Shown: positions 21,331 through 40,240 of the stretch, one piece after another
Layout: every line of letters starts with the position of its first letter
Position numbering within the stretch: the first letter of the stretch is position 1
IMG/VR virus record: IMGVR_UViG_3300032247_000812
Coordinates: 1-56,160 of that record
DNA: 56,160 bases
Reading direction: 5' to 3' (one strand)
From: a virus
Taxonomy: Duplodnaviria > Caudoviricetes
Notes under the pieces: generated by a model
Seen by the model: the letters and a program-made list of their open reading frames with translations, nothing else
What the model was told of the DNA's origin: nothing
Databases searched by the model: none
Position numbers and translations under genes: made by a program

Positions 21331-22107
21331 TTATAACAGTGTTTGTAATTTGTTTGATATTTGATTAGCAATTGATTTATTACTGAATCTTCCTGAGTGT
21401 AAGTTATCTCTGGCCTTATCCATAATGTCCCATAAAAATAAAACATTTTTCAATTGAAATCCTTTTGATATTTTCATACCAGGAAAATACATGTCAATGA
21501 TAGGTACATCTACTATATTTTCTATCATTTTTTTCTTCATTTCATACTGATGTTCAAAATATTTTATTTCATCACCTAATATAAAAAATTTAAGTTTATT
21601 TTGTTCACTCTCAGAAAAATTACTATTATCTACAAACCATGGCCCACCTTTACCAATCATAGAACCTTCTTCTTTAAAAGAAAATCTAGTGTAGTTTGGA
21701 TTCTGTAAAACAATAAATTTGGGTTTTTGCTTTACTTTAGATAACCAAGTTATTAGATTGTAGAATAAAATGTCTATTCCTGTTCCACCTAATCCCAAGT
21801 TATAATAGTCACAATTTAACTTTTTGCTTAATACATGTGAATATGTATCTTCTAAGTGTAACCCTATTCCTTCTGTGTTACTACAACCAGTAGTAAGAAA
21901 ATAGTTATCCAAATTAATATCTTCAATATCTTTACAACGATGTCCTAACTTATTTGTCAAATAAGTTATAGGATTGTTTCTATAATACCAATCATTGGGT
22001 GCAGTCTTTAGTGATTCATTAAATTTATTTTCACTATCTTGGTGGCTGAAAAAGATATTTTTATTTTTTGACATACCTATAAAATCGTCAATATAAATTA
22101 AAGACAC
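21331..22107 (-). CDS. SGNH/GDSL-like hypothetical protein
   Basis: GCSNTEGIG, YNLGLGG, ARDNLH motifs. Confidence 0.65.
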   Translation of the reverse strand: MSLIYIDDFIGMSKNKNIFFSHQDSENKFNESLKTAPNDWYYRNNPITYLTNKLGHRCKDIEDINLDNYFLTTGCSNTEGIGLHLEDTYSHVLSKKLNCDYYNLGLGGTGIDILFYNLITWLSKVKQKPKFIVLQNPNYTRFSFKEEGSMIGKGGPWFVDNSNFSESEQNKLKFFILGDEIKYFEHQYEMKKKMIENIVDVPIIDMYFPGMKISKGFQLKNVLFLWDIMDKARDNLHSGRFSNKSIANQISNKLQTLL

Positions 22108-22322
22108 TATCTTCTCCGTGTTATTCTGCCCCTAGCTAAATCATAAGGACTGAACTCTATTTCTACCTTATCGCCCAATAATACTTTAATATCGTTTTGG
22201 CGCATCTTGCCCGATATATAACCTAAAACTGTTTGTCCTGCAGTTAATGTTATTCTGAATGTAGCATTGGGTAGAACCTCTGCTACAGTACCATCCATTT
22301 TAATACCTTCTTCTTTTGCCAT
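22107..22322 (-). CDS. infA: translation initiation factor IF-1
   Basis: [19 protein letters not shown]...ISGKMR...GDKV..E.SPYDL.RGRI. Confidence 0.96.
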
Positions 22323-23005: not shown

Positions 23006-23533
23006 TTATAGCCAACGGCTATAAATCATAGTTAATATATTGATTGTCCTATCCGTTGTGCTGTCATGATGTTTAACTGCAATACCACCGTTTTCTACGA
23101 ATGGACCTAAGTACACGTGATAATCATCTACTAACACATTTGGATGACCGTCAGTCATTGCATATTTATATTTGTCCCTATCAAAGATACAACTTGCACT
23201 AGTGCCGGGGTTATGAATATCTAACCAATCACGTTTACCTCGTATGCATTCTTCAGTATGTCTTTTAAAAGGAGCACTCAATACTGTAAAAGGTATATTA
23301 TTATCTCGTAGCCATTTAATTATTCTTAGTCCCCCGGGTAATGGTCTAAGATTTCTAAACAAATCATAGACAAATTCAGGACCTCTAGCCTTAATAACAT
23401 CTGTAGCAGACTCTTTATTGGGCACGTCATCCCAACCCGACACATTATGAAGTCTAGCTAGTTCGTGGAACAAATCGGCCTGCACTCCGTCCATGTCCAA
23501 ATACAAATGCGGCATTCTTAAATTGTTATCCAT
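23006..23533 (-). CDS. 5'(3')-deoxyribonucleotidase-like HAD protein (NT5C)
   Basis: LYLDMDGVQAD, GK..WL, K.KYA, VLVDD. Confidence 0.85.
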   Translation of the reverse strand: MDNNLRMPHLYLDMDGVQADLFHELARLHNVSGWDDVPNKESATDVIKARGPEFVYDLFRNLRPLPGGLRIIKWLRDNNIPFTVLSAPFKRHTEECIRGKRDWLDIHNPGTSASCIFDRDKYKYAMTDGHPNVLVDDYHVYLGPFVENGGIAVKHHDSTTDRTINILTMIYSRWL

Positions 23534-24273
23534 GGCATCTTTTCTTTAATTAAATTATTTCTGTTGTGTACATATACATCATATGATTTTTTTATTTTAT
23601 CATTTATTGGATGCCCTGTCAAGTGTATAAGGTCATTTAATGTGCTAGCATTGTATATATTTTGATAGGGTATTATTAATGTTTTGTCTATAAAATCATT
23701 TGGTACAGGACTATCCATGAACCTTTTCCAAGACAACATTTGCGGTTTCCAAAAAGCAAGCATTTTATTAAAAATTTGTTCTAGTTTATCTAGTGTCAAT
23801 TCATTCTCATCATATTCTTTGCTGAACAGTTCTTTGTATATTTCACAAATATGGTTGAATGTCATAGATTTCCTAGTTTTATCAGCAAAAAATAAGTCAA
23901 ATCCATTTTTGTACATCAGATTACCTACTATCTCAGGAATGTCATTTTCACCATATGTAATAATTATGATTTTTGTTTTTGGAAATCTTTCACGAACTAT
24001 ATCCCAATTGGGATAGGTGTGAGAAGTCATTATACCTATATCCGACGTAAAATTAAAAATCTCATAAGCAGTTGGTCCATTAACACTCCATTCAATGCTA
24101 GGCTCATTTAATTTCACATCCCAATTTTTGGTCCATGGTTTTTCATAATGAGCAGAGTTAAACATGGTGTACTTAGTTTCAGTAGTTGAATTATTAATCA
24201 TATTCCAAAGAATATTTGATAAAAATCTACCACTAGTTCCAGCTACAAAGCTGACTATATATGTGTCGTTCAT
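23518..24273 (-). CDS. AT-rich hypothetical protein, sulfotransferase-like P-loop family
   Basis: VSFVAGTSGRFL N-terminus shared with 33536-34162. Confidence 0.65.
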   Translation of the reverse strand: MNDTYIVSFVAGTSGRFLSNILWNMINNSTTETKYTMFNSAHYEKPWTKNWDVKLNEPSIEWSVNGPTAYEIFNFTSDIGIMTSHTYPNWDIVRERFPKTKIIIITYGENDIPEIVGNLMYKNGFDLFFADKTRKSMTFNHICEIYKELFSKEYDENELTLDKLEQIFNKMLAFWKPQMLSWKRFMDSPVPNDFIDKTLIIPYQNIYNASTLNDLIHLTGHPINDKIKKSYDVYVHNRNNLIKEKMPWITI

Positions 24274-24340
24274 ATCAATATTTATTGGATATACCCAATG
24301 ATTTTAATTTTTAACTAAATACACACAAAGGAGGCCACAA

Positions 24341-24877
24341 ATGGCAGAAGAACAAAAACCCCTATCACGCAGTGAACGTGAAGCAAAAATTAAAGACAAG
24401 GCAGGCTGGGTAATTACATTACTAGCGTTAATGTTAGCAATCAACACATATATTGCTAATGGATTTACTGGTAAAGTATTGACTAACACGATTGCCGCAA
24501 ATAACATGTATAGCTTTTACCAAGCTAAATCAATCAAGCAAACATTAGCTGAACAGAGTTTGGATGATGCTATGATTCGTAAAGAAACAGCTAAGATTGA
24601 AAAACTAAAAGCAAAGATTGAACGCTACGAAAGCGATCCTGTATCTGGTGAAGGCAAAAAAGAATTGTTAGCAAAGGCTCGACAACTAGAGGCTGACCGA
24701 GATGAAGCTAGAAGACATAGCCCTTGGCTAACATTTAGTGGCACTAGTTTTCAGTTAGCAATTGTTTTGTTATCAGCAAGTATTTTAGCAGTTAGCATGC
24801 CGATGTATTGGGGAAGTCTAATAGTTGGCTTTATAGGTATGCTATTGATGGGCCAAGGCTTTTGGCTTTGGATATAA
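24341..24877 (+). CDS. DUF4337-like membrane protein
   Basis: FYQAKSIKQ motif, three TM helices; AAGGAGG RBS. Confidence 0.85.
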   Translation: MAEEQKPLSRSEREAKIKDKAGWVITLLALMLAINTYIANGFTGKVLTNTIAANNMYSFYQAKSIKQTLAEQSLDDAMIRKETAKIEKLKAKIERYESDPVSGEGKKELLAKARQLEADRDEARRHSPWLTFSGTSFQLAIVLLSASILAVSMPMYWGSLIVGFIGMLLMGQGFWLWI

Positions 24878-24894
24878 TTTAAAAGGAGAATGAC

Positions 24895-25131
24895 ATGAGT
24901 TTACCAACAGCGTTAGTACTTTTAGGCTTAGTAGTAGCACTAATTTATATCTATATCAGTAATAAAAGACATGATGCGGAAGTGGCAGCTTTAAAGGCTG
25001 TTCAGGCTGAATCATGGAAAACTGATTACCACAACCCAAACAGCCCTACATATGATCCTGTTCGTGTAGCGGCTGAAGAGGCAGAAGCACAAGCTAATCC
25101 AAGACCTAGCGATTACGCAGGCGATAGATAA
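24895..25131 (+). CDS. small membrane-anchored protein
   Basis: AAGGAG RBS; N-terminal TM helix. Confidence 0.75.
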   Translation: MSLPTALVLLGLVVALIYIYISNKRHDAEVAALKAVQAESWKTDYHNPNSPTYDPVRVAAEEAEAQANPRPSDYAGDR

Positions 25132-26214
25132 TTAGCCTCTTTCGGGGAAGTAATCTTCCATTACACCTTCTCTATGCAGGTCTGATGTAATACAATGTAA
25201 CCCGCCATCCCAAAAGTAACGATGGCGAAAGTTACATATGTGTGGGGTAATTCCATATCTATCAAACGCATCAAATACAAGTTTATTGTACCCATTGACA
25301 ATAGCATTTTTCTTATCTATCATAAGCATATTAACATCAAATACACTTTCTTCTGCGTATCCTACCCAATGGTTCATCCATGTCTCTACAAAGTTAGTAA
25401 AGTCATCATTTAACTCTTCACCAGGCACCCACCATTTGCCGTAATTTTTTTTCTTTAACTTAGTAAAATCTTGCATCTTAGACCAAGATTCATTTTCAAG
25501 ATACACTACTTCCCAATCAGGGAATGTTTCTTTATAATTAAGTGGTGAGGTTATACTAAAGATAAGTCCTGGTACAGCAGGACAAAAATAGCCGTCATTA
25601 TGACCTTGTGTGTCTACTATGTGTATTCTATTATCAGGGAATTTCTTCTCAAGGATACTCTGAAGATTGTCTAATATATTAGTAGAATGTATACCTTGAT
25701 GTGTTCCTATATATAAATCTTTACCGACACGTGTAGTCATTGCACCATTAGCCAGTGAAGGGCCTCTTAGTTCAGTATTATGCCATTCAATTCTATCACC
25801 TATTAATAACTCATTGTTGTCATAAAGTGTATTACCGTTTTCAATGATATGCTGATTGATATTATGCCAAACCTTATGATGTGGATTAACAAAATACTTT
25901 TCACCAATCATTATGGTATGGTCTCTGGGTTGCATAAAAAAGGGATTTGGAACAGATGCACCCGACCCGTCATTTTCAATAGCTTCTTTAGCATAGCCCA
26001 CTGGACTAGTAATATCGGGTCTAATAACCTTTACATTAAAACGTTCCAAAATAGAAATTAACTTTTGATAATCTTCTTCTGTTTCTTCAGCAATTTTATA
26101 AAAAACTTTTCTTATTTTTTCATTTTTAATATAGTCGTATAATTCGGGGGGATATGATTTCCCCACTACACAAACCTTAAGTGGATCCCAATGCTGATAA
26201 ACTGAATATGTCAT
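25132..26214 (-). CDS. amidinotransferase/pentein-superfamily enzyme
   Basis: WDPLKVCVVG, QPRD, HNDG, FDVN and GGLHCIT (catalytic Cys) motifs; ATGA overlap with upstream gene. Confidence 0.88.
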   Translation of the reverse strand: MTYSVYQHWDPLKVCVVGKSYPPELYDYIKNEKIRKVFYKIAEETEEDYQKLISILERFNVKVIRPDITSPVGYAKEAIENDGSGASVPNPFFMQPRDHTIMIGEKYFVNPHHKVWHNINQHIIENGNTLYDNNELLIGDRIEWHNTELRGPSLANGAMTTRVGKDLYIGTHQGIHSTNILDNLQSILEKKFPDNRIHIVDTQGHNDGYFCPAVPGLIFSITSPLNYKETFPDWEVVYLENESWSKMQDFTKLKKKNYGKWWVPGEELNDDFTNFVETWMNHWVGYAEESVFDVNMLMIDKKNAIVNGYNKLVFDAFDRYGITPHICNFRHRYFWDGGLHCITSDLHREGVMEDYFPERG

Positions 26215-26543
26215 AATGTATCTGGCCAATCTCTAAAAAGTGCATGTTGAATATTGCTTCCAACAAATTGATTAAAACTACGATGTTTATTTTCTAACTC
26301 GCCCTCCAATGGAGCAACTCTACTGAATGCTTCATCCATTTGTGCCATGCTAGTGAATTCCATCATTATATGCCATTCTGGCAAATCTTGTATACTACGG
26401 AATCCCATCTTGCATCTAGTGATGCGATACGATTCCATTTTCTTTTCTGTAATTAAATGGTCTAAAAAACTTTTCATATTATTGACCCATTGGGTGTCTG
26501 ATATGCCTTGTATTTTGTCACACCATATATGGTATATGTTCAT
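26211..26543 (-). CDS. DUF6614-like protein (alpha/beta barrel)
   Basis: YHIWCD, YRITRCKMGF, PEWHIMMEF..MAQMDEAF, ALFRDWPD. Confidence 0.75.
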   Translation of the reverse strand: MNIYHIWCDKIQGISDTQWVNNMKSFLDHLITEKKMESYRITRCKMGFRSIQDLPEWHIMMEFTSMAQMDEAFSRVAPLEGELENKHRSFNQFVGSNIQHALFRDWPDTL

Positions 26544-26980
26544 GTTAAAGGTCCTAATATTTCATAGCCATCTAATTGGCTTTTATAGTTGTCTGCTAAT
26601 CCTAGATACAAATACTTAAAACCCTGATTTTTATAGTATGCACACTCATGCTCTAAACTCGCTATCCCTAATTTAATATCGGGGTTAGAATAGTCCCAAG
26701 CAAATTGCAGTGATTCTGCATTTTCTATGTCATATTTTTTCACTATGCTAAATGCACAAAATGTATCTTCAGGGTAGTAAGATATTATATCAGTATTCTT
26801 ATCAAATATCAAGCCGTGGAATAAAGGCATCACGCTTGTAAATTTTTTGTAAGCACAGTATTTTCTATAGATGTTTTGCAGAATGTCCATTTGTGAGTCA
26901 CGCTCACTCATAGACATGTGATGACCAAACTTTAAAATACTGTAGTTTGTTTTGGATAAGTTAATTCTGCAAAATTTCAT
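26540..26980 (-). CDS. GNAT protein resembling arginyl/leucyl-tRNA-protein transferase C-terminal domain (ATE_C)
   Basis: FAWDY...LGIASLEHECAYYKNQGFKYLYLG...YK aligns by eye with ATE1/Bpt SLGT..IL.EI..A...G..Y.YLG..M.YK. Confidence 0.7.
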   Translation of the reverse strand: MKFCRINLSKTNYSILKFGHHMSMSERDSQMDILQNIYRKYCAYKKFTSVMPLFHGLIFDKNTDIISYYPEDTFCAFSIVKKYDIENAESLQFAWDYSNPDIKLGIASLEHECAYYKNQGFKYLYLGLADNYKSQLDGYEILGPLT

Positions 26981-26984
26981 TAAC

Positions 26985-27479
26985 TTATTTATTTCGCCAA
27001 TCCACTACGTCATTTAAATTATGTTTTGACCAAACATCATAATAACCCTTTTCTTTTAAAAGGTCACTTGCTTCAGTTAACTTACTTAATTTTTGTAGCA
27101 ATAATAGGCCACAATGTCCAAAGTTCATTTTGACACCGTTTACGTATTCGGGTGTGTTTGGGTGGTCTTCTAAAATAACATAGTCATTTTTCATTAGCAA
27201 GGTGTTTGTGCCCACTACAAACTCTTGTAAGAATTCAGGACTAATTCTGTTATGGTCAAAGCAAATAATTATTACATCTTTGTGTTCTAGTTTACTTAAT
27301 TGTTGATTTATAGTTTCAAACATATTAGAAACCTCAGTAAACTGAACTTCAATTTTATTTGCTATTCTTGCTTGTCTGGCATATGGACAGGGAGCCCAAT
27401 TACCTAAAAGGCTATTGGGTTTTTCTATAAAATTAACCATCCACTCGGATAGTTGTTCTTTAATGAATTCTTCGTTCAT
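26985..27479 (-). CDS. DUF1415-like protein
   Basis: W...F...PCPYAR, DHP, LLQ motifs. Confidence 0.65.
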   Translation of the reverse strand: MNEEFIKEQLSEWMVNFIEKPNSLLGNWAPCPYARQARIANKIEVQFTEVSNMFETINQQLSKLEHKDVIIICFDHNRISPEFLQEFVVGTNTLLMKNDYVILEDHPNTPEYVNGVKMNFGHCGLLLLQKLSKLTEASDLLKEKGYYDVWSKHNLNDVVDWRNK

Positions 27480-27751
27480 TATTTTGAAAATTGATTTTTA
27501 TCTTTTTTAGGAACATAATCAACACCGGGTACAGGAGTAAAATCCTTGCACACTCTATTAATCATATCTTCCCCGTACTTTAATGTAAGTAAACTAAACT
27601 GTTGGTCAGCGTCTTTATTGTAGTGGTTGTCAATACCAATCATAAAATGTTGCCACCAACGAATTTTTGTAGTGGCATATTTCTTAATAATTATATCTTT
27701 TTCGATATCTGTAAAATCATTATTTTCACGGTAGAATGTATAGTATTTCAT
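27479..27751 (-). CDS. hypothetical protein
   Basis: Coupled ORF in operon. Confidence 0.7.
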   Translation of the reverse strand: MKYYTFYRENNDFTDIEKDIIIKKYATTKIRWWQHFMIGIDNHYNKDADQQFSLLTLKYGEDMINRVCKDFTPVPGVDYVPKKDKNQFSK

Positions 27752-27948
27752 TGTTTCCACATTTTAAAGGCAACTAAATCCTTTTCATTTTCAAAGTAAA
27801 ATTCATAAATGCCCGCATCACGCCCTGCTGGTTGCTTGCACTCATAGCCCCAGTCATCAATGCAATTGCGTTCTAGCCAAGATACCATGGGCCTTAATTC
27901 ACCAAACTCAATAAAAATATCAGCCTTCAGCTTCGTATTTAGTAACAT
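27748..27948 (-). CDS. hypothetical protein
   Basis: GGAG RBS; YEFYFENEKDLVAFKMW. Confidence 0.7.
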   Translation of the reverse strand: MLLNTKLKADIFIEFGELRPMVSWLERNCIDDWGYECKQPAGRDAGIYEFYFENEKDLVAFKMWKQ

Positions 27949-28444
27949 GTACTCCACTCTTGTTTAAGAAATCAATACCATCGGTGCTACGATATGTATC
28001 ACGATAGATTAAGCGAGATATACCACTTTGATATATTAGTTTGGCACAATCAATACAGGGTGCATGTGTGCAAAACATAACAGCATTGTCCCCTGCTTCA
28101 TTGCTTTTGGCAAGTTTACTAATTGCATTTGTTTCTGCATGTAAGACTTCAGGTTTTGTTTTTAGTCTATAACGACCTTGCATTACATTGCCATCAATAT
28201 CTAGGTATGAACCTTCATATGGCCAACCTTCTTCAATTTCTTCTGGATCAAGCCAACCACCTGCACTACACCATTCTTTATCTTCGCAATCGTTGTCCCA
28301 CCCTGCAGGCATACCGTTATAACCAATACTAATGATTCTATCATCTTTGACTACAATAGCACCTACATTAAGTCGTTTAGCATAGCTTAATTTACTTGTG
28401 CGTTCAGCAACATCCATGAAATAATCTATAAATTTCTTTTTCAT
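27920..28444 (-). CDS. dCMP deaminase
   Basis: IGYNGMP, LHAETNAI, HAPCIDCAK. Confidence 0.94.
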   Translation of the reverse strand: MKKKFIDYFMDVAERTSKLSYAKRLNVGAIVVKDDRIISIGYNGMPAGWDNDCEDKEWCSAGGWLDPEEIEEGWPYEGSYLDIDGNVMQGRYRLKTKPEVLHAETNAISKLAKSNEAGDNAVMFCTHAPCIDCAKLIYQSGISRLIYRDTYRSTDGIDFLNKSGVHVTKYEAEG

Positions 28445-28713
28445 TTTACGTAAAACTTTTTAATATGTGCTATAGCAGATTTATTTGGTAAGATACTTAG
28501 TACATAATTTGGTTCGTCATACTTTTTGCAAAATGCTTCGCCTAATTTAGTATTACCCTTTAATTGTTCAAAGAGAAATCCTTTGCAAAAATCGTCAAAC
28601 TCTTGTTTACTAATCTTAAAATCTTTCTTACCTTTTCCCAGTGTTTGTACTTCTAATTGTTTTACCATTTGTTCAAACATATCAATCCCAGAGGTTTCTA
28701 TAATATTTTGCAA
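28441..28713 (-). CDS. hypothetical protein
   Basis: ORF in operon; start uncertain. Confidence 0.65.
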   Translation of the reverse strand: MQNIIETSGIDMFEQMVKQLEVQTLGKGKKDFKISKQEFDDFCKGFLFEQLKGNTKLGEAFCKKYDEPNYVLSILPNKSAIAHIKKFYVK

Positions 28714-29218
28714 ATAAATCCAAACCTTCTTGGATACGTTCTTCGTGTAGTTGATGACCCTCGTAATCGTACCAATGATTTTCGGGGTTCTTATCTACCA
28801 TTTGAAATGTTTCTTCTACTTTGCCTGTTAGTGGATTAGGAAATGTTTTATCACTTTTAACCCAATCATATTCAGCATGACCATGATGATATTGTTCATC
28901 ATAATCACCTTTAAGCAATTGCTCAAAAGACCAAATCATTTTGTCTAGTGTTTCTTCCCAACGCTTAACACCTTCATTGAAGGCTTCATCATTACTTTCT
29001 TCATAGAAATCAAAACTTTGTTGACTATGATGTTTCTCGCCACCTACGTCACCAAACTGATTTGGTATGCCGTGCTTGGTATTTCTAAGTTGAACCAATG
29101 CTGGGTATATAATAAGTGCTAATGTGTGGTCTAGATTCCATGTATCATACCCGTCAATAGTCACATTTACTTTTCTATTGTTATTCTTTCTAGGGAATTT
29201 ACCTAAACTAACTTTCAT
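28682..29218 (-). CDS. conserved phage hypothetical protein
   Basis: DTWNLDHTLA.II.P.L, LDKMIWSFE, GL.LFAKYY.NLWD. Confidence 0.85.
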   Translation of the reverse strand: MKVSLGKFPRKNNNRKVNVTIDGYDTWNLDHTLALIIYPALVQLRNTKHGIPNQFGDVGGEKHHSQQSFDFYEESNDEAFNEGVKRWEETLDKMIWSFEQLLKGDYDEQYHHGHAEYDWVKSDKTFPNPLTGKVEETFQMVDKNPENHWYDYEGHQLHEERIQEGLDLFAKYYRNLWD

Positions 29219-29577
29219 AATGCATCCTTAATAGCACCGTTGATAAAGTAATAATGCTCTTTATCATGTACAACCACTGCTACGTCTACTCCACCGTACT
29301 CCTTAGAATTTTTAGCTAATTCTTGCACCGTCTTACCTTGACAAATAAAAGACTTGTCTTCAAAATCATACAGTAATAGTGAGTTATCAGCCCTTTCTAT
29401 AACTAATTTTCTAACAACTAATTCAGTAACCTCATCGGATTCAAGTTGAATACCACGTCTTTTGGCTTCTAACTTAACAGCTTCACGGATACGCAATGTA
29501 AAGAACATCTCGCCGGCTCTAAAGCCCGCAACAAAGACTACGATTATGGCTACTAGTGTGTCGAAATCTAAACTCAT
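29215..29577 (-). CDS. membrane-anchored hypothetical protein
   Basis: N-terminal TM; FICQG. Confidence 0.75.
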   Translation of the reverse strand: MSLDFDTLVAIIVVFVAGFRAGEMFFTLRIREAVKLEAKRRGIQLESDEVTELVVRKLVIERADNSLLLYDFEDKSFICQGKTVQELAKNSKEYGGVDVAVVVHDKEHYYFINGAIKDAL

Positions 29578-29581
29578 ATTT

Positions 29582-29863
29582 TTATTTATTAATTTCTAAG
29601 TTAGACCATTTCTTTAATTTTTCAAACTTATTCTTTTTAGCCTGTTCAATGCCCTCATTGGACACTCCGATATTTAAGTCAGTAAGCAACTCAACCATTG
29701 CAAACAGGTCACCGATTTCTTCTTCAAGCATGTTTAAGTTTGTTCGGTCTTTACCGGGCTTCATTTGGTCAGGACCAAACCGCATACACTTGCTAACGGC
29801 TTGGGTAACCTCCGCACATTCCTCTTGTAAAATTAATAAAATTTCTTTTAGATTATCATTCAT
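29582..29863 (-). CDS. MazG-like nucleotide pyrophosphohydrolase
   Basis: LQEECAEV and EEEIGDL motifs. Confidence 0.85.
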   Translation of the reverse strand: MNDNLKEILLILQEECAEVTQAVSKCMRFGPDQMKPGKDRTNLNMLEEEIGDLFAMVELLTDLNIGVSNEGIEQAKKNKFEKLKKWSNLEINK

Positions 29864-30170
29864 CTTTAACTACTTCCAACGTTGTGGTGTTGCCACCTAA
29901 TTCTTTTAAATCTTTTTCCAATGTACTTAATACAGATGCACCATAACCAGTAGTACCTTCACGACCTTTATAGCATATGTAAAGACTTCCTGAGTAATTA
30001 GTATACTCATATCTATCTTCAAATTCTACTGTTTCTGTAATACCAGAACTTAGTTTCCAACTGTCACTTCCAGTATAACCACCATACCAATTTGCAAATA
30101 CTTTTTTTGTCTTTTCATCTTTGTGTGTTACTTCTACTATAATCCACTTATCAGGTGTGTAAGTACTCAT
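29856..30170 (-). CDS. conserved phage hypothetical protein
   Basis: YTPDKW, WYGGYTGSDSWKLSSGI, SGSLYIC. Confidence 0.85.
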   Translation of the reverse strand: MSTYTPDKWIIVEVTHKDEKTKKVFANWYGGYTGSDSWKLSSGITETVEFEDRYEYTNYSGSLYICYKGREGTTGYGASVLSTLEKDLKELGGNTTTLEVVKDE

Positions 30171-30622
30171 TTTAATCCCTCTAGATAATTTTCATGTTGA
30201 ATCCATTTGCCGTTTTTCAAAAAGCCCCAATCACGTGATTGTGGTCCCATGAAAAATAATGTAGTAACTGGTTTTTCATTTTGTAATTCTAACCAATGAT
30301 AATCATTTGCTTTACGAACAATAACACTGCCCGGACCACGCCATTCTTGAAACACCCCTATTTGTTTATTCTCTTTGTTATAGACAGGGTAGTGTTCCCA
30401 ATAACCACCTTTTAGTATAATGGTCATGTATCCCCATGGGTGGTCATGTAAAATAGGATCATCACTTTTTACAATTTTATGTAGTGTTACATTAAATGGG
30501 AACCATTTTCTATCCTTCAGAAACAGGTAATAACGATGCATGTAATCTGCACCTGTTCTACGGTCTGGGATAAGACGATACCTGCCAAGTTTATCCATAA
30601 GTTTGTGAAATATACTACTCAT
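30167..30622 (-). CDS. cupin-fold protein
   Basis: LHDHPW, ILKGGYWE, H.LEL, TLFFMGP..RDWGF; GGAGG RBS. Confidence 0.8.
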   Translation of the reverse strand: MSSIFHKLMDKLGRYRLIPDRRTGADYMHRYYLFLKDRKWFPFNVTLHKIVKSDDPILHDHPWGYMTIILKGGYWEHYPVYNKENKQIGVFQEWRGPGSVIVRKANDYHWLELQNEKPVTTLFFMGPQSRDWGFLKNGKWIQHENYLEGLK

Positions 30623-30642
30623 TTAATCCTCCGGCAAATATT

Positions 30643-30683
30643 AAGAAAAGTTGACGGGCTTTAATTAATTGGGCGCCCGTCAA
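30643..30683 (-). terminator. terminator-like hairpin
   Basis: TTGACGGGC...GCCCGTCAA stem then CTTTTCTT on minus strand; small TTACC-GTGA-GGTAA hairpin just upstream. Confidence 0.65.
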
Positions 30684-30706
30684 GCCCTTGTTACCTCACG
30701 GTAATA

Positions 30707-30961
30707 TTAAACGCCCAATGCCAATGCACGATAGCCAGCTGCCACGATTGCACGTGAAGGCTTGCCCAAACGATACTTAGTAGTCACACGACCTTTAGTA
30801 TCAGTATGCTTGTTTGCATATACTGCATAACCTTCAAAACGCAAATTGCTGATAGTAGCAGTTGGGTTCTTCACGCTAAAACGTGCGGCGATTTGTTTAG
30901 CAGTCAATTGCTCACCAGCTTGAAGTGCTGATAGTACACGGGTTTGTTTAGTTTCTGTCAT
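30707..30961 (-). CDS. winged helix-turn-helix protein
   Basis: AAGGA RBS at ATG 30961; VLSALQAGEQLTAKQIAARF...ATISNLR. Confidence 0.8.
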   Translation of the reverse strand: MTETKQTRVLSALQAGEQLTAKQIAARFSVKNPTATISNLRFEGYAVYANKHTDTKGRVTTKYRLGKPSRAIVAAGYRALALGV

Positions 30962-31057
30962 TTTGTTTTCCTTTAAAATTTCATTGTTCTCACAATGTGC
31001 ATCTATTATATGATAATATCTAAGAATACACAATATTAATTGGTCGCCTAGTTTAAG

Positions 31058-31900
31058 TTAGATATCCAAAAACAATAACTCAAATTCATCTGCACGGGCC
31101 TCATGGTTAATATAACCGCGTGGATTACAAATAACCCTAGTATCACCTACCTTATAATCACTTACATTATGCATATGACCATGTGTCCATAATGCAATCT
31201 GTGGATGATCCAAAATGAATTCAGTTAAGTTACTGAAATAACCACCATTCATTAATGTATCATTATGATACATTTCATCTACACTTTCAAAGCTAGGTGC
31301 ATGATGGCCTACTACCACGCATTTTTTATCTTTGTTTTCACTTAATACAAATTTAAAATATTGCAAGGTTTCACGGTGTCGCAATACCACATCCTGAGTA
31401 CTCATGGATGCATAATTTCTTTTATCGTTTTTAATAATACGGAAATCATTCATCATGGATCCAACGGCATGCAGTGTAAGAGGATCTGCCCTATTCATAT
31501 CAGTCCATAATGTACCACCCACAAACACTACATCATTAATTATCTTAGTATCACGTTCCAAAAAGTATACATTAGGAAACTTGGCGCATTCTTCACGCAG
31601 GTAATCAATACTTGCATAAAACTTCCCATGATAAAACTCATGGTTACCTGCAATAAAAATTACGTGCGGAAATTGAAAACTGCAACGGCTTAAAAAGTCA
31701 CGATATCTTTGTGCCGCGGCTTGTCTACGTCCCAAATTACTAATTTGAGTTGGGTCGTTAGGATGCACCTGTGGATGGTCATGCAAATCTTGTGCGACCA
31801 TAATATCACCACTGAGAATTAATACCTCAGCATTATCTGTATTCTTAAGTACAATATCTCCAAACTCTAAATGCAAATCACTGCATACTGCTACTCTCAT
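31058..31900 (-). CDS. calcineurin-like metallophosphoesterase
   Basis: SDLHLE, GDI, GNHEFY, HHAPS, HGHMH, CNPRGY. Confidence 0.92.
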   Translation of the reverse strand: MRVAVCSDLHLEFGDIVLKNTDNAEVLILSGDIMVAQDLHDHPQVHPNDPTQISNLGRRQAAAQRYRDFLSRCSFQFPHVIFIAGNHEFYHGKFYASIDYLREECAKFPNVYFLERDTKIINDVVFVGGTLWTDMNRADPLTLHAVGSMMNDFRIIKNDKRNYASMSTQDVVLRHRETLQYFKFVLSENKDKKCVVVGHHAPSFESVDEMYHNDTLMNGGYFSNLTEFILDHPQIALWTHGHMHNVSDYKVGDTRVICNPRGYINHEARADEFELLFLDI

Positions 31901-31908
31901 ATTATCCT

Positions 31909-32310
31909 TTACCCCCGGCGCATACGGGAAATATCTTGCGCTTCCTCATCACTAAAAACAGGTACAGCGTTACTCTTATGCATTGTTGCGATACCTTTTA
32001 CCTTTGTACCAGTGTATATTTTTGGTGGAGCCAATGTTGCACTACCCACATTGCTATTCAAACTTTTAATGTGTGCAGTGGTATTTCTACCTTCGGGAAT
32101 CTTCAATGAATATGACCCACTAAGTGAACCTGCACTCAGTGCCCTTACTCGTTTCTTTTCCTCTTGCTCAATACCTTGACGCTTGAGTAATTCTTTCCAA
32201 GACTCGTCTAATTCACGTGCCTTACGTGCCTCGGCGGCATTACGAAATTTAACTTTACCTTTTTTCTTACCAGAGGTACTAAGCCAAGGACCTTCTAAAT
32301 GCATACTCAT
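31909..32310 (-). CDS. conserved myophage hypothetical protein
   Basis: YTGT.VKGIATMHKSNAVPVF...DISRMRR motif. Confidence 0.85.
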   Translation of the reverse strand: MSMHLEGPWLSTSGKKKGKVKFRNAAEARKARELDESWKELLKRQGIEQEEKKRVRALSAGSLSGSYSLKIPEGRNTTAHIKSLNSNVGSATLAPPKIYTGTKVKGIATMHKSNAVPVFSDEEAQDISRMRRG

Positions 32311-32642
32311 TTGATTAACTCCGCAATATGTTTACAAGCACCTCGGTATGTAAACCCAGGACACGTGCATGTTTTATCCTCTGTGTCAAGTGAATACACA
32401 GAACCTTTACTACCAGTAACTTTAATAATTGTACTCTTTTCTTTGACTTTTGTAAAGGGATTTGGCTTAACTGTTGTAAACTTACGACCGCGCCTGTCAA
32501 AGTTCTTAATTGGATTTTTGAAATAGAAGGGTGTACTTTCACCCTTCTTGATGTATGCTACTAGATTAGTTCCATCCAACAAGTAAGTATGATTCGGCGA
32601 CTCTGAGCCGGGCCATACTGTTGTCTCTAGTAATGCTTCCAT
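32307..32642 (-). CDS. SWIM zinc-finger protein
   Basis: GSKGSVY...CTCPGF..RGACKH. Confidence 0.85.
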   Translation of the reverse strand: MEALLETTVWPGSESPNHTYLLDGTNLVAYIKKGESTPFYFKNPIKNFDRRGRKFTTVKPNPFTKVKEKSTIIKVTGSKGSVYSLDTEDKTCTCPGFTYRGACKHIAELIK

Positions 32643-32652
32643 TTGTATCTCC

Positions 32653-33150
32653 TTACAGGGGCAATACTTCTACTGTTTCTAGTATTTCTTCAATCAGTGC
32701 TACTGCTAAGGGTTTAAAGTCACCACCGTGATCCGATACAAACCAAGTAGCAACACCATTTACACTTCGCAAAATGTAATCGTATTCTTCAGCTTGACCA
32801 TTGGCACGATAATCTGCAAAATCTTTGAAGTATCGTGCATACACATTGTGTTCACTACGGTCACGACCATAGAAGGTAGTCATGTTACCATAGAGTTCCT
32901 CAAACTTGCCATCCTTGCTTAGAGGGCTATCAGCCGACAAATCAAAAACACTAAAAGGATGCTTGGTACCGATTGTGGGACGCAAACTAGAAACGTCACC
33001 GAGGTCAATCAAGTCACGCAATACAAAGGGATTAGAATAATTTTCTTGCAAGATTTTACCGTTGTGTGACAAGTAACCATCCCAATGACAGTATACCTGA
33101 CCAACTGTACCGTCAGCGAATTCAAGAGCGATTGTAGAACGTGTAGCCAT
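32653..33150 (-). CDS. conserved early hypothetical protein
   Basis: MATRS.I...VYCHWDGY, FYGRDR, EYDY; behind promoter repeat B. Confidence 0.85.
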   Translation of the reverse strand: MATRSTIALEFADGTVGQVYCHWDGYLSHNGKILQENYSNPFVLRDLIDLGDVSSLRPTIGTKHPFSVFDLSADSPLSKDGKFEELYGNMTTFYGRDRSEHNVYARYFKDFADYRANGQAEEYDYILRSVNGVATWFVSDHGGDFKPLAVALIEEILETVEVLPL

Positions 33151-33157
33151 TTTCGAG

Positions 33158-33212
33158 TCCTTTTCTTTACTGTCTAAGATTCTATTATATCAGAAAGCCC
33201 ATTTATTGTCAA
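33158..33212 (-). repeat. early promoter-leader-RBS repeat, copy B
   Basis: TTGACA-17-TATAAT-AGAATCTTAGACAGTAAAGAAAAGGA. Confidence 0.9.
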
Positions 33213-33214
33213 AT

Positions 33215-33472
33215 TTAAGCAAATTCGTAAAACTTGACTGATGGATCCAATTTCTTTAATTCACGTGCCGCAGTAGTTAATTCCTTGTATCGGGCTTGAA
33301 CAAGACTACGTGGCAGTTCACCGTCGCATGTAAGATTTTCGGGACTCAAATCTGAATCGATTGAATCGGCAATCTTTTGACGGTCGGTTGCATTGTCCAA
33401 AGTAAGTTCTTTGGCACCAAAAATTGTACCGTATGCGTTTTTACGAACCAGATATGTTTTTAATGCTGACAT
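33215..33472 (-). CDS. early hypothetical protein
   Basis: LSPENLTCDGE motif; behind promoter repeat C. Confidence 0.85.
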   Translation of the reverse strand: MSALKTYLVRKNAYGTIFGAKELTLDNATDRQKIADSIDSDLSPENLTCDGELPRSLVQARYKELTTAARELKKLDPSVKFYEFA

Positions 33473-33478
33473 TTTTAA

Positions 33479-33534
33479 CTCCGTTATCTAACTGTCTAAG
33501 ATTCTATTATATAGCCAAACGGATTTATTGTCAA
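33479..33534 (-). repeat. early promoter-leader-RBS repeat, copy C
   Basis: TTGACA-17-TATAAT-AGAATCTTAGACAGTTAGATAACGGAG. Confidence 0.9.
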
Positions 33535-33535
33535 C

Positions 33536-34162
33536 CTAATGGGGAATGTTGTTTTCCTGCAACATTTTGTTCCTGCCGTCAACGTAGGATTTGTAGTTTT
33601 TTAATATTGATTCTGTAATTGGTTTATTTAAAAACTTACTTATTTTCTCTAAAGCTACAAATGAATCATTATGTGGTTCATATATTTCATCATACATAAT
33701 AACCAGTGTAATTTCTTTAAATTCATCTGGAATTTTTATATCTGTATAATTACCCCAAACAGATTTAGTATTAGTTAATATGTTTACCGGTTTTGTAACA
33801 TCCATTTTATTTTTAGTTAATATATTATTAATAATTTCATCTGAATTATTTGGTGATATACCAATTAAAATGGTTTTACAATTAGGGGCTTTTTCAGTAA
33901 TTAATTTTGGTAACTGTGTAGCCGGCGCAGGCACCAATCTAGATTTAAGATTAGGGAATGCATGAGTACACATTATTTCTTTATACTTCCAACGTTGTGC
34001 AGGAGTTAGGTATTTGATTGGATAATCATGACCGCTATTGTTTCTCCAAACAATATTTTCTATATCTAGGTCATCTCGTAGCATATGGCAAATAGCCGCT
34101 AAGAATCTTCCGGAAGTACCCGGGGCAAATGCAACTACCAATTCTACTAGCGGCTGATTCAT
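33536..34162 (-). CDS. AT-rich hypothetical protein, sulfotransferase-like P-loop family
   Basis: VAFAPGTSGRFL; paralogue of 23518-24273. Confidence 0.65.
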   Translation of the reverse strand: MNQPLVELVVAFAPGTSGRFLAAICHMLRDDLDIENIVWRNNSGHDYPIKYLTPAQRWKYKEIMCTHAFPNLKSRLVPAPATQLPKLITEKAPNCKTILIGISPNNSDEIINNILTKNKMDVTKPVNILTNTKSVWGNYTDIKIPDEFKEITLVIMYDEIYEPHNDSFVALEKISKFLNKPITESILKNYKSYVDGRNKMLQENNIPH

Positions 34163-34188
34163 TACTTAAGTAATCTCCTATTTAATAA

Positions 34189-34683
34189 TCAAGAACCTGT
34201 TGACAAGAACAAAATTTCTTTGCTAATCGAACTTTGTTGAAACTGCTCAATGTAAACGTGGTGATTGTCTGTGCTACTACGCATAGCCGCATTAGCCGCA
34301 ACATACAATGCCGCCCAAGTAAGACCGTTCACTTCAACAGTGATATCTTTGTTGGTATTCCAATCTTTGTACACTACCTGAGTAGCACCTTCATAGGGGT
34401 GACGGTCATTAAGATTGTCGACCTCGTAGATAGACCAAACAGTCTGTAAACCTAGGTCTGTACGGACATTATCGTAATGTTCATGTTTGGTTTCAAACGC
34501 CTTGTCATCTTGCTCATATGCACCCTTGAGTCCATCGGCAATTTGCGTTTGAGCCTTGAGCAATTTTTTCAGTAATGAGGGATGAATCGTATCTTCCAAT
34601 TGACCGATGATTGAGGCCAATTCACACATTCCGTTGTGTACGTTTTTGAATTCTTGGGCTGTCAGAGTAGGGTTGCAATTCAT
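34189..34683 (-). CDS. early hypothetical protein
   Basis: TWAALY.AA..A...S.D.HHVYIE.F...L.TGS; behind promoter repeat D. Confidence 0.8.
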   Translation of the reverse strand: MNCNPTLTAQEFKNVHNGMCELASIIGQLEDTIHPSLLKKLLKAQTQIADGLKGAYEQDDKAFETKHEHYDNVRTDLGLQTVWSIYEVDNLNDRHPYEGATQVVYKDWNTNKDITVEVNGLTWAALYVAANAAMRSSTDNHHVYIEQFQQSSISKEILFLSTGS

Positions 34684-34690
34684 AAATTCG

Positions 34691-34746
34691 CTCCGTTAGT
34701 TAACTGTCTATGTATGTATTATATAGCCAAATCCATTTATTGTCAA
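34691..34746 (-). repeat. early promoter-leader-RBS repeat, copy D (variant)
   Basis: TTGACA-17-TATAAT-ACATACATAGACAGTTAACTAACGGAG. Confidence 0.85.
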
Positions 34747-34787
34747 CCATTTCTGCCGCTTTTTTGGGTGTTGTTTTTACACAACAC

Positions 34788-35363
34788 TTAGATTGTGTCT
34801 AAAATATAATCGGCCGCATTATATCCAACCATTTCCTCTGCATTTAAATATACATCACTTGGTTGTAATAGTTTCTTTTTAATAGTATTAATATCTAAAT
34901 CAGTTGCCGTAGTTAATACATCAACCATTCTATCATTTAATCTGTCATTTTCTTTTATCATTGCTTTAATATCATGGTACTTAAGTTCCCCGTCATTACC
35001 TGAAAATTGATGACACATAATGCCAGTATTTTTACCAATATAACGATGACCTTTAGTACCACTAGCAAATATTAAAAATGCCGCACTCATAATACTACCT
35101 AATCCAATAGTTCTAATAGGATGTATACTATTATGCATTATGTCAATTAATCCCAATGCTTCATATAAATCACCACCACAGCTATTAATATATAATGTTA
35201 ATAGTTTCTCTGGTTTTTTATCCATATTTTCATATACAATCCATTTAATAGTTTCATTAATGGTTTCAGTATTAATCTCACCTATTAAAAAATGTGTGTG
35301 ATTTTCTAATAGTTTAACACTAATTCTATCTTCCGCATTAAATTCTTCTATTTTCTTTGGCAT
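34788..35363 (-). CDS. divergent ClpP-family protease
   Basis: LYINSCGG, MSAAFLIFASG, MCHQ, DVYLNAEE (Ser-His-Asp apparently retained). Confidence 0.88.
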   Translation of the reverse strand: MPKKIEEFNAEDRISVKLLENHTHFLIGEINTETINETIKWIVYENMDKKPEKLLTLYINSCGGDLYEALGLIDIMHNSIHPIRTIGLGSIMSAAFLIFASGTKGHRYIGKNTGIMCHQFSGNDGELKYHDIKAMIKENDRLNDRMVDVLTTATDLDINTIKKKLLQPSDVYLNAEEMVGYNAADYILDTI

Positions 35364-35372
35364 TTTATTCTT

Positions 35373-36017
35373 TCAAAATGTATATGACGCTAAACTATCT
35401 TCTTTTACACCAGTTAATCCAGTCCAAAATGTATTAAATGATAATGACCTACGATTCCAAGGCATATCAGTTGGAACCTCTTCTACAAAATGATGTTGAT
35501 TACTTAAAAATAATACCATGTGATGTTGTAAATTATTAATAGTAGCAGGGTCAATTTGCTGGTCTTTGATTAATGCATTCAATGATGCATAGGTTTTATT
35601 CTTTGTAATAAAATAAGGTACTTGTGGTAAATATGATTCAATGTATAAATTTAAATTACTTGGATTATTATCCAAATAAATCACACCACTGATTACGCTA
35701 AATGGATGTACATGTTCATGGTGATTCTGACCCGGCTCAGTTTTATTAGCCCATGAGTTTGTCATTTTTAAATCTTGATAAAAATCACCGATGTTTAATG
35801 TATGTTTTAAAAACAAACTACATTCATCTTCAATAGCTTTTTTACTATCAGCAAACACATCTTTATCAAAGAAATTTTTATCAATACTAATTTCGTTATT
35901 GATATTTTTTTTATATTCTAATTTAGATAATTCATCTTCTACGTTATTAAAGTTTACCATTTCAGATAAATCTTTAATAAGAATTAATTGTTGGCTTACA
36001 TTAAATAGCAAATTCAT
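35373..36017 (-). CDS. putative 2OG-Fe(II) oxygenase (TIGR02466-like)
   Basis: SWAN, HHEHVHP.SVISGVIY, H.V, RRSLSFN. Confidence 0.82.
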   Translation of the reverse strand: MNLLFNVSQQLILIKDLSEMVNFNNVEDELSKLEYKKNINNEISIDKNFFDKDVFADSKKAIEDECSLFLKHTLNIGDFYQDLKMTNSWANKTEPGQNHHEHVHPFSVISGVIYLDNNPSNLNLYIESYLPQVPYFITKNKTYASLNALIKDQQIDPATINNLQHHMVLFLSNQHHFVEEVPTDMPWNRRSLSFNTFWTGLTGVKEDSLASYTF

Positions 36018-36605
36018 TTATTGTCTCTTTTCAAGTATTTTATCAGCTAATCCATATGTCACGGCTTGATCCGCACTCATAAAGTTATCACGTTCCATAT
36101 CCCGTGTTAAATCTTCAAATGACTTACCTGCACTATTGTGCTTAACATAGATATTGGTTAGATTTCGTTTCATTTCAAGGATTTCTTCAACTTGAATTAA
36201 CATGTCAGTTGCTTGACCACGTGCGCCACCACTTGGTTGATGAATCATATGTCGTGCATTGGGTAATATATAACGCTTACCTTTGGCTCCTGCTTGTGCA
36301 AGCAAGCTACCCATACTACATGCTTGACCCATAACAATAGTCATAACATCGGGCTTAATAAATTGCATTGCATCATAGATAGCCATACCAGCAGTTACGC
36401 TACCACCTGGGCTATTAATATAAAGGCTGATATCTTTTTCACCTTCACTTTCCAAATAAAGCAATTGGGCAACAACTAGATTTGCCATTTGGTCATGTAC
36501 TTCGCCCTCAAGCAAAATCACACGGTCACGCAACATGCGGCTGTAGATATCGTAACTACGCTCGCCTTTTGCGGTTTGTTCTAAAACCATTGGTACTAAA
36601 CTCAT
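36018..36605 (-). CDS. clpP: ATP-dependent Clp protease proteolytic subunit
   Basis: [47 protein letters not shown]. Confidence 0.97.
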
Positions 36606-36693
36606 AACACTCCTTAAGTAGATTTATATGTAACATTGTACATGCTATATTTACTTAATTCAAATGTTATGGCTAGTTATTTTTTATATTGGG

Positions 36694-38151: not shown

Positions 38152-38255
38152 GATATAAGTATTTATTCAAAATTATAATTTATTCATATAAAAAAATGAC
38201 TATTAGCCGTTCCTGTGTTAAATATACTGTACAGTTCAAAATTAAAGGAGAATAT

Positions 38256-38594
38256 ATGTTTGAATTTTTGAAAAAGTTATTTTCAAGTAAGCCTAAGACA
38301 ACAGAAACACCCGCACCAGCGTGGGATAATACAGTACCTTATAAGGTCCCTGAGCCACCTGCAACAACACTGATTCCATTAGTTGTTACTAACAGCAATC
38401 CTGCAGATAATGTACCTTTAGTTGCAAAAGTAGAACCAGTTGTTCCTAAAGCTGAAACATCTGCTAAAAAACCACGTGCTCCACGTGCTCCAAAAGTAGC
38501 AAAAACTGAAACTGCGCCTAAGGCAAAAAAAGTTAAAGAAACAACTGATAAGCCTAAGGCACCTAAAAAGCCAAGAATTAGTATTGCCAAATAA
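38256..38594 (+). CDS. Lys/Ala/Pro-rich low-complexity protein
   Basis: AAGGAG RBS; MFEFLKKLF amphipathic start, histone-H1-like basic tail. Confidence 0.8.
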   Translation: MFEFLKKLFSSKPKTTETPAPAWDNTVPYKVPEPPATTLIPLVVTNSNPADNVPLVAKVEPVVPKAETSAKKPRAPRAPKVAKTETAPKAKKVKETTDKPKAPKKPRISIAK

Positions 38595-38597
38595 TAG

Positions 38598-39299: not shown

Positions 39300-39601
39300 G
39301 CCTCTTGCTCAATTTTTACTTGAAGAGGAAAGCCCTTGCTACGTGCGTCTAGTGTAACTTCAACGCCCTTTTGTTCAGCAATTTCGTAAGGTAATACAGC
39401 TACTACAGCACTACCGGCTTCATGGATATTATGCGTAATGTTTTGTGCATGTTCCATATTGTAGTCAAAGTAATTAATTAAACTACCAACAACAAACTCC
39501 ATACTTGTTACTTCATCATTAAAATAAATGATTTTAAATAACGGTGGTTCACTCAATGCTAGATTGGGTCTAATTTTTACTTTTGTTTCTGCTTTTGACA
39601 T
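39296..39601 (-). CDS. clpS: Clp protease adaptor ClpS
   Basis: PPLFKIIYFNDEVTSMEFVV, IHEAGSAVV, EIAEQK, GFPL. Confidence 0.93.
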   Translation of the reverse strand: MSKAETKVKIRPNLALSEPPLFKIIYFNDEVTSMEFVVGSLINYFDYNMEHAQNITHNIHEAGSAVVAVLPYEIAEQKGVEVTLDARSKGFPLQVKIEQEA

Positions 39602-39632
39602 GGTTTAGATAGCCTTTAAAATGTTGTTATAA

Positions 39633-39656
39633 GTGTGTAGCCTTGCGACTACACAC
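39633..39656 (-). other. GNRA-capped stem-loop between hsp20 and clpS
   Basis: GTGTGTAGTC-GCAA-GGCTACACAC on minus strand. Confidence 0.65.
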
Positions 39657-39667
39657 ATGCTATTATA

Positions 39668-40186: not shown

Positions 40187-40240
40187 ACGTATTTATTATA
40201 ATAAAAATACGCAAAAAATTCTACTATTTTGGTTATACTA

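Follow-up and report, generated by a model that had tools for sequence, protein, structure and literature searches.

Four coupled genes and their products

The DNA stretch analysed here (the window) is the whole viral record IMGVR_UViG_3300032247_000812 from IMG/VR with 56,160 bases and a G+C content of approx. 36%. As CheckV rated it as 16% complete, the phage from which this fragment stems should have a genome of roughly 350 kb. Four consecutive genes on its minus strand, between positions 25132 and 27479, form a cassette that is conserved in other viral contigs. The first one, g164 (26985-27479), encodes a putative thiolate-heme enzyme of 164 amino acids (aa) with an AglA-like fold and remote similarity to DUF6875/cytochrome P422 and DUF1415. 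It is followed by g146 (26540-26980, 146 aa), a single-domain GNAT protein with an ATE_C/Bpt-like core and without the ATE_N part, by g110 (26211-26543, 110 aa), a DUF6614 protein, and by g360 (25132-26214), a pentein-fold amidinotransferase-like protein resembling AGAT, HsvA, SxtG and StrB1. The listed open reading frame (ORF) of g360 reaches up to a TTG at 26229; the ATG at 26214 is the most sensible start and results in 360 aa.

The junctions are narrow. A gap of 4 nucleotides separates g164 from g146 (taa-gtta-ATG), while g146 and g110 as well as g110 and g360 overlap by ATGA. The end of g360 is abutted by a 78-aa ORF on the plus strand that stops at 25131 and is itself preceded by a DUF4337 gene. 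A first interpretation made from the letters alone (the sequence-only reading) had described tight coupling with a convergent gene at the end, and the junction sequences agree with it. It had also regarded the four genes as an operon. Coupling and coordinates are in line with this, while a stand-alone unit is not, since a 93-aa gene upstream shares one base with the start of g164 (TAATG). The T4-type late promoter motif TATAAATA occurs five times in the window compared with 9.4 expected occurrences; none lies between 23170 and 42414 and hence none near the cassette. Scans of the window for sigma-70-like promoters and for terminators gave results near background or non-specific ones. Given the upstream coupling and the lack of the late promoter motif from 23170 to 42414, the four genes are a conserved cassette within a longer co-directional gene string and not a self-contained operon.

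g164 matched the Pfam family DUF6875 (PF21780) with 19.2 bits (E 1.3e-3) and thus below the gathering cut-off of 24.5. Only residues 8-63 were covered, a span that includes Cys31. The same family was found for 16 out of 25 members of the g164 family at E ≤ 1 and, at E ≤ 0.01 and with 1e-5 as best value, for 43 out of 139 diverse relatives, the latter being drawn from the 1074 clusters that g164 relatives form at 50% identity. Two relatives with 54-55% identity to g164 carry a precomputed PF21780 label. DUF1415 came second with six of the 25 members and eight of the 139 relatives, so that the label "DUF1415-like", given to the protein by the sequence-only reading, is a weak one and DUF6875 fits better. 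Cys31 is the only invariant residue in the 139 relatives, its neighbour on the C-terminal side is Pro32, and the motif CP[FYWLM] is present in 136 of 138 sequences. Further near-invariant residues are D105, H106, P107, Y146, Y147 and W150.

The AlphaFold2 model of g164 has a predicted local distance difference test (pLDDT) score of 94.3 and consists of four strands flanked by helices. Foldseek returned no row at E ≤ 0.001 when the model was searched against the PDB. In a comparison with 48,161 chains using VIA-align, apo-AglA ranked first with a Z-score of 7.5 and an alignment over 148 of the 164 residues, ahead of a chain with 4.6. A second structural comparison placed five AglA entries on ranks 1 to 5 (Z 7.5-8.3, root-mean-square deviation (rmsd) 3.4-3.9, 143-150 of 164 residues aligned), followed by a chain with 4.7. 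AglA is the prototype of the YqcI/YcgG proteins, a four-strand sandwich with a heme ligated by Cys44, and N-hydroxylates the guanidine group of AMPn-Arg, as stated in the available text of PMC12866846. DUF6875 corresponds to cytochrome P422, for which the preprint 10.64898/2025.12.11.692455, in its accessible parts, describes a four-strand sandwich in which a b-heme is ligated by the thiolate of the Cys in the motif RxGxVCP. With a Cys-Pro motif of heme-ligand type near its N-terminus and its four strands with flanking helices, g164 resembles P422, from which it differs by the sub-threshold match and a partial RxGxVCP motif. It is probable that g164 is a thiolate-heme enzyme of the P422/YqcI-YcgG fold, in which case it would bind heme.

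Two other assignments of g164 were rejected. A PADLOC match to Csn2 (E 5e-4) was taken as chance, and no meaningful PADLOC match was obtained. A role as a stand-in for the ATE_N half could be dismissed as well, as hhalign gave a probability of only 0.05% against six Bpt-like proteins and no ATE_N match was found with Pfam. Together with the thiolate-heme appearance of g164, this speaks against the former suggestion that the DUF proteins act as the acceptor-binding half of an ATE enzyme, at least with respect to g164.

The product of g146 matched Pfam ATE_C (PF04377) with 20.3 bits (E 8.7e-4; cut-off 25, not reached). ATE_C was the only recurrent Pfam family among its relatives and was detected in 23 out of 25 family members at E ≤ 1 (best E-value 1.8e-7), while Acetyltransf_6 was matched by just one of the 25 and ATE_N by none of them at E ≤ 1. 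The NCBIfam arginyltransferase model gave a weak match of 15.4 bits at a cut-off of 170. When g146 was compared by hhalign with six Bpt-like proteins from Bacteroidota, the alignment (E 3.4e-4, probability 37.8%) began at approx. residue 84 of these proteins and comprised 109 columns over their C-terminal half. In a joint MAFFT alignment, the g146 motifs RI.L, LG..S..E, Y.Y.G and YK (in the longer form YK..F.G.E) fell on those of the Bpt-like proteins, and the invariant Arg5 (CRINL) was located on their RI.L strand. g146 differs from ATE1/Bpt, composed of ATE_N and ATE_C, by its length of 146 aa without ATE_N compared with approx. 220-260 aa for the Bpt-like proteins, and by belonging to an almost entirely viral family. 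Longer g146-like proteins of 226 and 263 aa with an additional GW..G N-terminal part occur in two related loci, L031 and L038, and have no Pfam match at E ≤ 0.1. Fused long forms of g146 were not found among 8000 candidates, which is weak evidence.

The AlphaFold2 model of g146 (pLDDT 95.1) is a single GNAT domain. Its best fold matches by VIA-align were the second GNAT lobes of aminoacyl-phosphatidylglycerol synthases, namely, MprF 7f47 (Z 15.7, rmsd 2.5, 140 residues aligned) followed by 5vrv (15.4) and L-PGS 4v36 (15.1); the five top values (14.8-15.7) all belong to MprF or L-PGS. Lower scores were observed for the acetyl-coenzyme A (CoA)-dependent VipF (14.5), the second GNAT lobe of FemX (14.4), N-myristoyltransferase (13.4), Sba18/Sbb17 (13.0) and the polyamine acetyltransferase DpA (12.5). 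Foldseek lists ATE1 for g146. Judged from its sequence, g146 can be regarded as a trimmed, divergent ATE/Bpt-like core, and its donor is probably, though not demonstrably, an aminoacyl-tRNA. The sequence-only reading had recognised the C-terminal GNAT signature of ATE1/Bpt without an N-terminal domain; the GNAT fold and the lack of ATE_N are confirmed, while the ATE_C signature itself stays beneath the cut-off.

No amidinotransferase model of Pfam or NCBIfam matched g360. A phmmer search against the PDB led to seven chains, among them HsvA (6.6e-9), AGAT (2.7e-8 and weaker), SxtG (1.1e-7) and StrB1 (8.8e-4). The significant alignment is confined to the last approx. 65 residues, where the catalytic Cys region is located and C341 aligns with the Cys region of AGAT and HsvA. 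R97-D98 (PRD), H205 and D207 (HxD) and C341 (GGxHC, GGLHC in g360) are invariant in 23 relatives, so that the catalytic Asp, His and Cys motifs of a pentein enzyme noticed earlier are indeed retained. These residues make up the active site of a pentein amidinotransferase and are taken by us to be the equivalents of Asp170, His303, Asp305 and Cys407 of AGAT. Thus, g360 shares the GG.HC, HxD and PRD motifs with the AGAT family (AGAT, StrB1, SxtG, HsvA), and it differs in the short significant alignment, in inserts of variable length and in the lack of a Pfam match.

g110 was assigned to DUF6614 (PF20319) with 84.5 bits (E 6.9e-24, cut-off 25) over residues 1-109 of 110, which confirms its earlier label. 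Its mean column identity of 75% in 16 relatives exceeds that of the other three proteins (41-52%) and makes it the best conserved member of the cassette. The DUF6614 profile produced chance-level rows only when searched against the PDB. The arrangement of its hydrophobic strands and helices raises the suspicion of a ferredoxin-like alpha+beta barrel fold.

Linkage, fusions and viral distribution

The association of the four genes was studied by tblastn within 5 kb on either side of an anchor gene. This comprised 26 IMG/VR loci anchored on g146 and 12 anchored on g360, 38 in total, several of which are duplicates of one phage type. The g146-anchored loci contained g164 in 24, g360 in 17 and g110 in 15 of 26 cases. 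Around g360, g164 was detected in 10, g146 in seven and g110 in seven of 12 loci, and clustering revealed longer g146-like ORFs in three further ones. All four genes were present together in 18 of the 38 loci and in at least four different orders and orientations. For g110 as third anchor, at least 572 IMG/VR stretches encode a relative. Within the best 80 of these loci, g146 was found in 73, g164 in 69 and g360 in 29; for the 49 loci flanked by 4 kb or more on each side, the values were 47 for g146, 47 for g164 and 22 for g360. The order g164-g146-g110 was the commonest (41 of the 80). Other arrangements were g164-g146-g110-g360 as in the window, g164-g146-g360-g110, and g146 convergent with g164-g360-g110. 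On contigs of at least 77 kb with a non-adjacent g360, a member of the g360 family was located elsewhere on the contig in seven out of seven cases checked. DUF6614 was not found in four contigs that lack it near the cassette and that are only 8-19% complete. As the genes occur together in many viral contigs in different orders, they are more than chance neighbours. Conserved co-occurrence in other genomes, on which the sequence-only reading depended, was hence recovered with three anchors, with shuffled gene order and with natural fusions.

These fusions connect several of the proteins directly. In P0192 (572 aa), a g164-like domain precedes a complete amidinotransferase with 40% identity to g360 over the full length (E 5e-109). 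P0273 and P0274, with 16 and eight member sequences, respectively, contain an amidinotransferase followed by DUF6614. P0215 (572 aa) combines a radical S-adenosylmethionine (SAM)/SPASM enzyme with a C-terminal g164-like domain. In P0284, a g146-like protein is joined to a partial DUF6614; its end looks frame-shifted and it was not relied on. The fusions show that g164, g360 and g110 work close to each other, and they presumably share a substrate. Concerning the amidinotransferases, two or three paralogues were seen side by side or tens of kb apart in the loci L016, L035, G161, G163 and G164, and one of the paralogues in the latter contig holds an in-frame TGA.

The cassette is widespread in uncultured aquatic phages and essentially viral. 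Clusters of g146 and g164 relatives in the protein atlas were 83-100% viral, and one cluster of 3,698 g146-like proteins was viral to 99%. Among 185,579 species genomes, one per bacterial or archaeal species, a single g146 locus was detected. It lies on a contig of 6.3 kb from a metagenome-assembled Bacteroidetes genome and has neighbours that match a viral contig. The INPHARED collection of 50,697 GenBank phage records contained no relative of g146. g360 had only distant matches there (28-52% identity) in four records and other contexts. One of the amidinotransferases considered, annotated as "glycine amidinotransferase" in Synechococcus phage S-SCSM2R (28.5% identity), was rejected as the same cassette, since the other three genes are absent; its neighbours are 2-oxoglutarate (2OG) oxygenases and KdsA/KdsB. 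Parts of the window were found in metagenome runs (20 DNA rows from 13 studies), the habitat labels of which, where given, are freshwater, lake or aquatic. One of these rows may stem from the source sample itself, and rows with a small share of the window were set aside. No RNA run was among the matches listed. A published description of the cassette was not found in the literature searched (DUF6614, DUF1415/DUF6875, and amidinotransferase/arginyltransferase in combination with phage). In the accessible parts of that literature, the annotation of the distant amidinotransferase in S-SCSM2R was the sole phage mention. DUF6614 appears in one anti-defence preprint as a weak annotation of one ORF.

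Several features surround the cassette in the window. The gene of the DUF4337 membrane-type protein (24341-24877, plus strand, Pfam 107 bits) and the 78-aa ORF (24895-25131, plus strand), which matches no family, are the sole plus-strand pair in that stretch and converge on the cassette. Upstream, three genes for proteins of 93, 69 and 174 aa (27479-28444, minus strand) are translationally coupled to it. The 174-aa ORF resembles a deoxycytidylate (dCMP) deaminase by eye, a label taken from the translation alone. These three genes are syntenic only in L027-L030 among the 38 loci. At 22107-22322 on the minus strand, a 71-aa ORF has a translation that resembles translation initiation factor IF-1, again by eye only. 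Genes for two tRNAs, namely, tRNA-Val(tac) and tRNA-Gly(gcc), are located at 435-590 on the plus strand, and tRNA-Arg was not found in the window, a 16% fragment. The cassette of the related viral loci L002 and L005 has genes for a sigma-70-type sigma factor (502 aa) and for a subtilase (681 aa) at its sides.

Related loci furthermore carry genes for radical SAM enzymes. One such family was present in 19 loci and another directly upstream of g146 in 11. The latter arrangement, with a radical SAM gene encoding 240-314 aa, characterises a divergent form of the cassette in L006, L017, L021-L023, L026 and relatives, where the 5 kb around it hold as many as three more radical SAM genes, an aminotransferase-like gene, a weak TilS_N-like PP-loop gene and a weak match to Asp/Arg hydroxylases. 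A pyridoxal phosphate (PLP)-enzyme-like gene as well as weak matches to PP-loop (TilS_N, E 0.006) and 2OG-oxygenase-like genes were also noted for related loci in general. Such surroundings fit a biosynthetic island.

A candidate tailoring pathway and its rivals

Three of the four proteins suit amino-acid-like small molecules and two of them guanidines, which leads to the reading of the cassette as a phage pathway that makes or tailors a small molecule of the arginine or guanidine type, i.e. an amino-acid derivative. We give this reading an even chance of being correct. The solved structures nearest to g360, as judged from its phmmer matches in the PDB, belong without exception to enzymes with free arginine and small amines as substrates. 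In such a pathway, g360 would take over the amidino group of arginine or of a different guanidine as a Cys-amidine intermediate and pass it on to an accepting amine. g164 may oxidise the same substrate or product with its thiolate-ligated heme, most plausibly by N-hydroxylation of the guanidine or an amine, with electrons from redox partners of the host. g146 would add an aminoacyl group to the amine or hydroxylamine of the intermediate, probably from aminoacyl-tRNA as in ATE/Bpt, MprF and FemX. g110 could be an accessory or further catalytic subunit or a scaffold in physical proximity to the amidinotransferase. The genes with their coupling, conserved linkage and fusions, the folds and the conserved catalytic residues are observations, whereas heme binding, aminoacyl-tRNA as donor, the use of arginine, the sequence of the steps and the kind of product are proposals.

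One of the closest known systems is the pair AglC/AglA of argolaphos biosynthesis in Streptomyces monomycini, where a GNAT-type transferase, the Arg-tRNA-dependent ligase AglC, is likewise paired with a small alpha/beta sandwich protein with an N-terminal Cys. AMPn-Arg, the substrate of AglA, was prepared with ArgRS, tRNA and AglC according to the text available from PMC12866846. By analogy, the persistent adjacency of g164 and g146 would mirror the logic of AglC/AglA, i.e. aminoacyl transfer and heme N-oxygenation on the same molecule. Differences are the missing sequence match to PF08892, the host context of a phage instead of an actinomycete, and the ATE_C-like nature of g146, whereas the GNATs of the cluster are reported as PF13480 type in the accessible part of PMC8976061. 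Moreover, the cassette contains no phosphonate genes and adds an amidinotransferase and DUF6614. Pathways of the pseudouridimycin type also combine amidino transfer, N-hydroxylation and amide-bond formation (PMC10127198 and PMC6586884, in the parts available), which yields an N-hydroxylated, formamidinylated dipeptide, and serve as an analogy only. The cassette has no nucleoside part, and in those pathways hydroxylation and ligation are carried out by other enzyme families. The enzyme assignments for pseudouridimycin are here presumed by us. The sequence-only reading had likewise arrived at an arginine-centred pathway. It gains an unforeseen argument from the structural match to AglA, while its tRNA dependence and its arginine donor are left conditional by the ambiguous fold of g146 and the sub-threshold ATE_C match.

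A number of observations weigh against this tailoring pathway. Among the four proteins, only the DUF6614 protein reaches the threshold of a curated family. The Z-scores of 7.5-8.3 of g164 with AglA lie in a range that is common for best hits, and a Z of about 8 alone is no proof. YqcI/YcgG (PF08892) had no match in the window at E ≤ 10, though controls were matched, and was absent from the Pfam matches of both the 25 and the 139 relatives of g164. Profile searches with g164 against the PDB missed AglA by sequence and gave chance-level rows only. The P422 motif RxGxVCP is partly kept in g164 (..GNWAPCP), with the upstream Arg and Gly positions unmatched. The Trp-binding motifs of P422 quoted in the preprint, which describes Trp hydroxylases and enzymes forming C-S bonds, are not matched by the near-invariant residues of g164, so that a substrate different from that of P422 is likely. 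A plant-type 2Fe-2S ferredoxin was found in none of three sequences, namely, the window and two complete genomes bearing the cassette, and electrons would thus have to come from the host. The fold of g146 does not separate tRNA- from CoA-dependent GNATs, as the spread is only about one Z unit, and the 50 chains with its highest Z-scores do not include ATE1. In 51 of the 80 g110-anchored loci, the amidinotransferase gene is no direct neighbour. Finally, tblastn with the radical SAM genes and other neighbours from related loci gave no match in the window.

The ATE/Bpt-like features of g146 can also be explained by an N-degron writer. g146, as a trimmed Bpt/ATE, would aminoacylate protein N-termini from aminoacyl-tRNA for degradation by phage ClpS/Clp, and g164, g360 and g110 would modify N-terminal residues beforehand by oxidation or guanidino chemistry, similar to the steps at eukaryotic tertiary N-degrons. 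The recurrence of ATE_C as the only Pfam family (23 of 25), the weak NCBIfam arginyltransferase match, the motif alignment with Bpt-like proteins and the longer g146-like proteins with a GW..G N-terminal part are consistent with this. Furthermore, ClpS (PF02617, 80.6 bits) is encoded in the window (39317-39550, minus strand) and in four out of five large contigs bearing the cassette, including two complete genomes of 352 and 329 kb. However, ClpS is at least 12 kb away and unlinked, ATE_N is missing in all 25 members of the g146 family, the longer forms have no Pfam match at E ≤ 0.1 and the hhalign probability is only 37.8%. The nearest relatives of the partner proteins act on free amino acids or small molecules and the amidinotransferase has no explanation in such a pathway. 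We consider an N-degron writer quite unlikely.

The gene surroundings allow for a nucleic-acid hypermodification, in which DNA bases of the phage or tRNA would be decorated with aminoacyl or guanidino groups against host nucleases or for packaging, e.g. by amidination of a base that bears an amine. A putative dCMP deaminase ORF precedes the cassette in the window and in L027-L030 (57-58% identity by tblastn), and radical SAM, PLP-enzyme-like and weak PP-loop genes are present in related loci. Thymidine hypermodification and the 7-deazaguanine pathways involve enzymes of such classes. The deaminase, however, is labelled by eye and its synteny is confined to four closely related loci out of 38. 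Beside the cassette, hallmark genes of the DNA-transferase, kinase or glycosylase type were not found, and the fold and family searches revealed no resemblance of any of the four proteins to known enzymes that modify DNA or tRNA. Hypermodification is very improbable. The least probable alternative is the tailoring of polyamines or other amines without tRNA, with g146 as acyl-CoA-dependent GNAT and an HsvA-like g360 yielding polyamines with amidino or acyl groups, which would serve to condense DNA or to manipulate the host: HsvA, which prefers polyamines, is the best PDB sequence match of g360 (6.6e-9) and the CoA-dependent VipF (Z 14.5) and DpA (Z 12.5) are near the top for g146, but the five best Z-scores of g146 all belong to aminoacyl-tRNA-dependent MprF/L-PGS enzymes, its relatives match ATE_C in 23 and Acetyltransf_6 in one of 25 cases, and the heme-like g164 and DUF6614 are left without a role.

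Significance for aquatic phages

The gene combination is undescribed in the literature searched, and each of its parts belongs to a known kind of enzyme or lies just outside of it. Under the preferred reading as an arginine- or guanidine-type tailoring pathway, the cassette is filed as a tRNA-assisted amino-acid tailoring pathway containing a heme N-oxygenase, which is of a known kind and now phage-borne. A bolder and rather unlikely version of this reading is that g164 represents a viral branch of thiolate-heme N-oxygenases of the P422/YqcI type, which has joined an amidinotransferase and a minimal tRNA-dependent aminoacyl transferase. A natural-product-like pathway of their own would then be widespread in giant aquatic phages, which would use it to make an N-hydroxy-guanidino or N-N-bonded aminoacyl compound that could act as antimetabolite or signal against the host or competitors during infection.

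If the tailoring pathway is true, phages would run a dedicated amino-acid-derived chemistry with a heme N-oxygenase and possibly with tRNA-borne amino acids. A large viral branch would be added to two heme families that were described only in 2025, and DUF6614 would gain a testable context.

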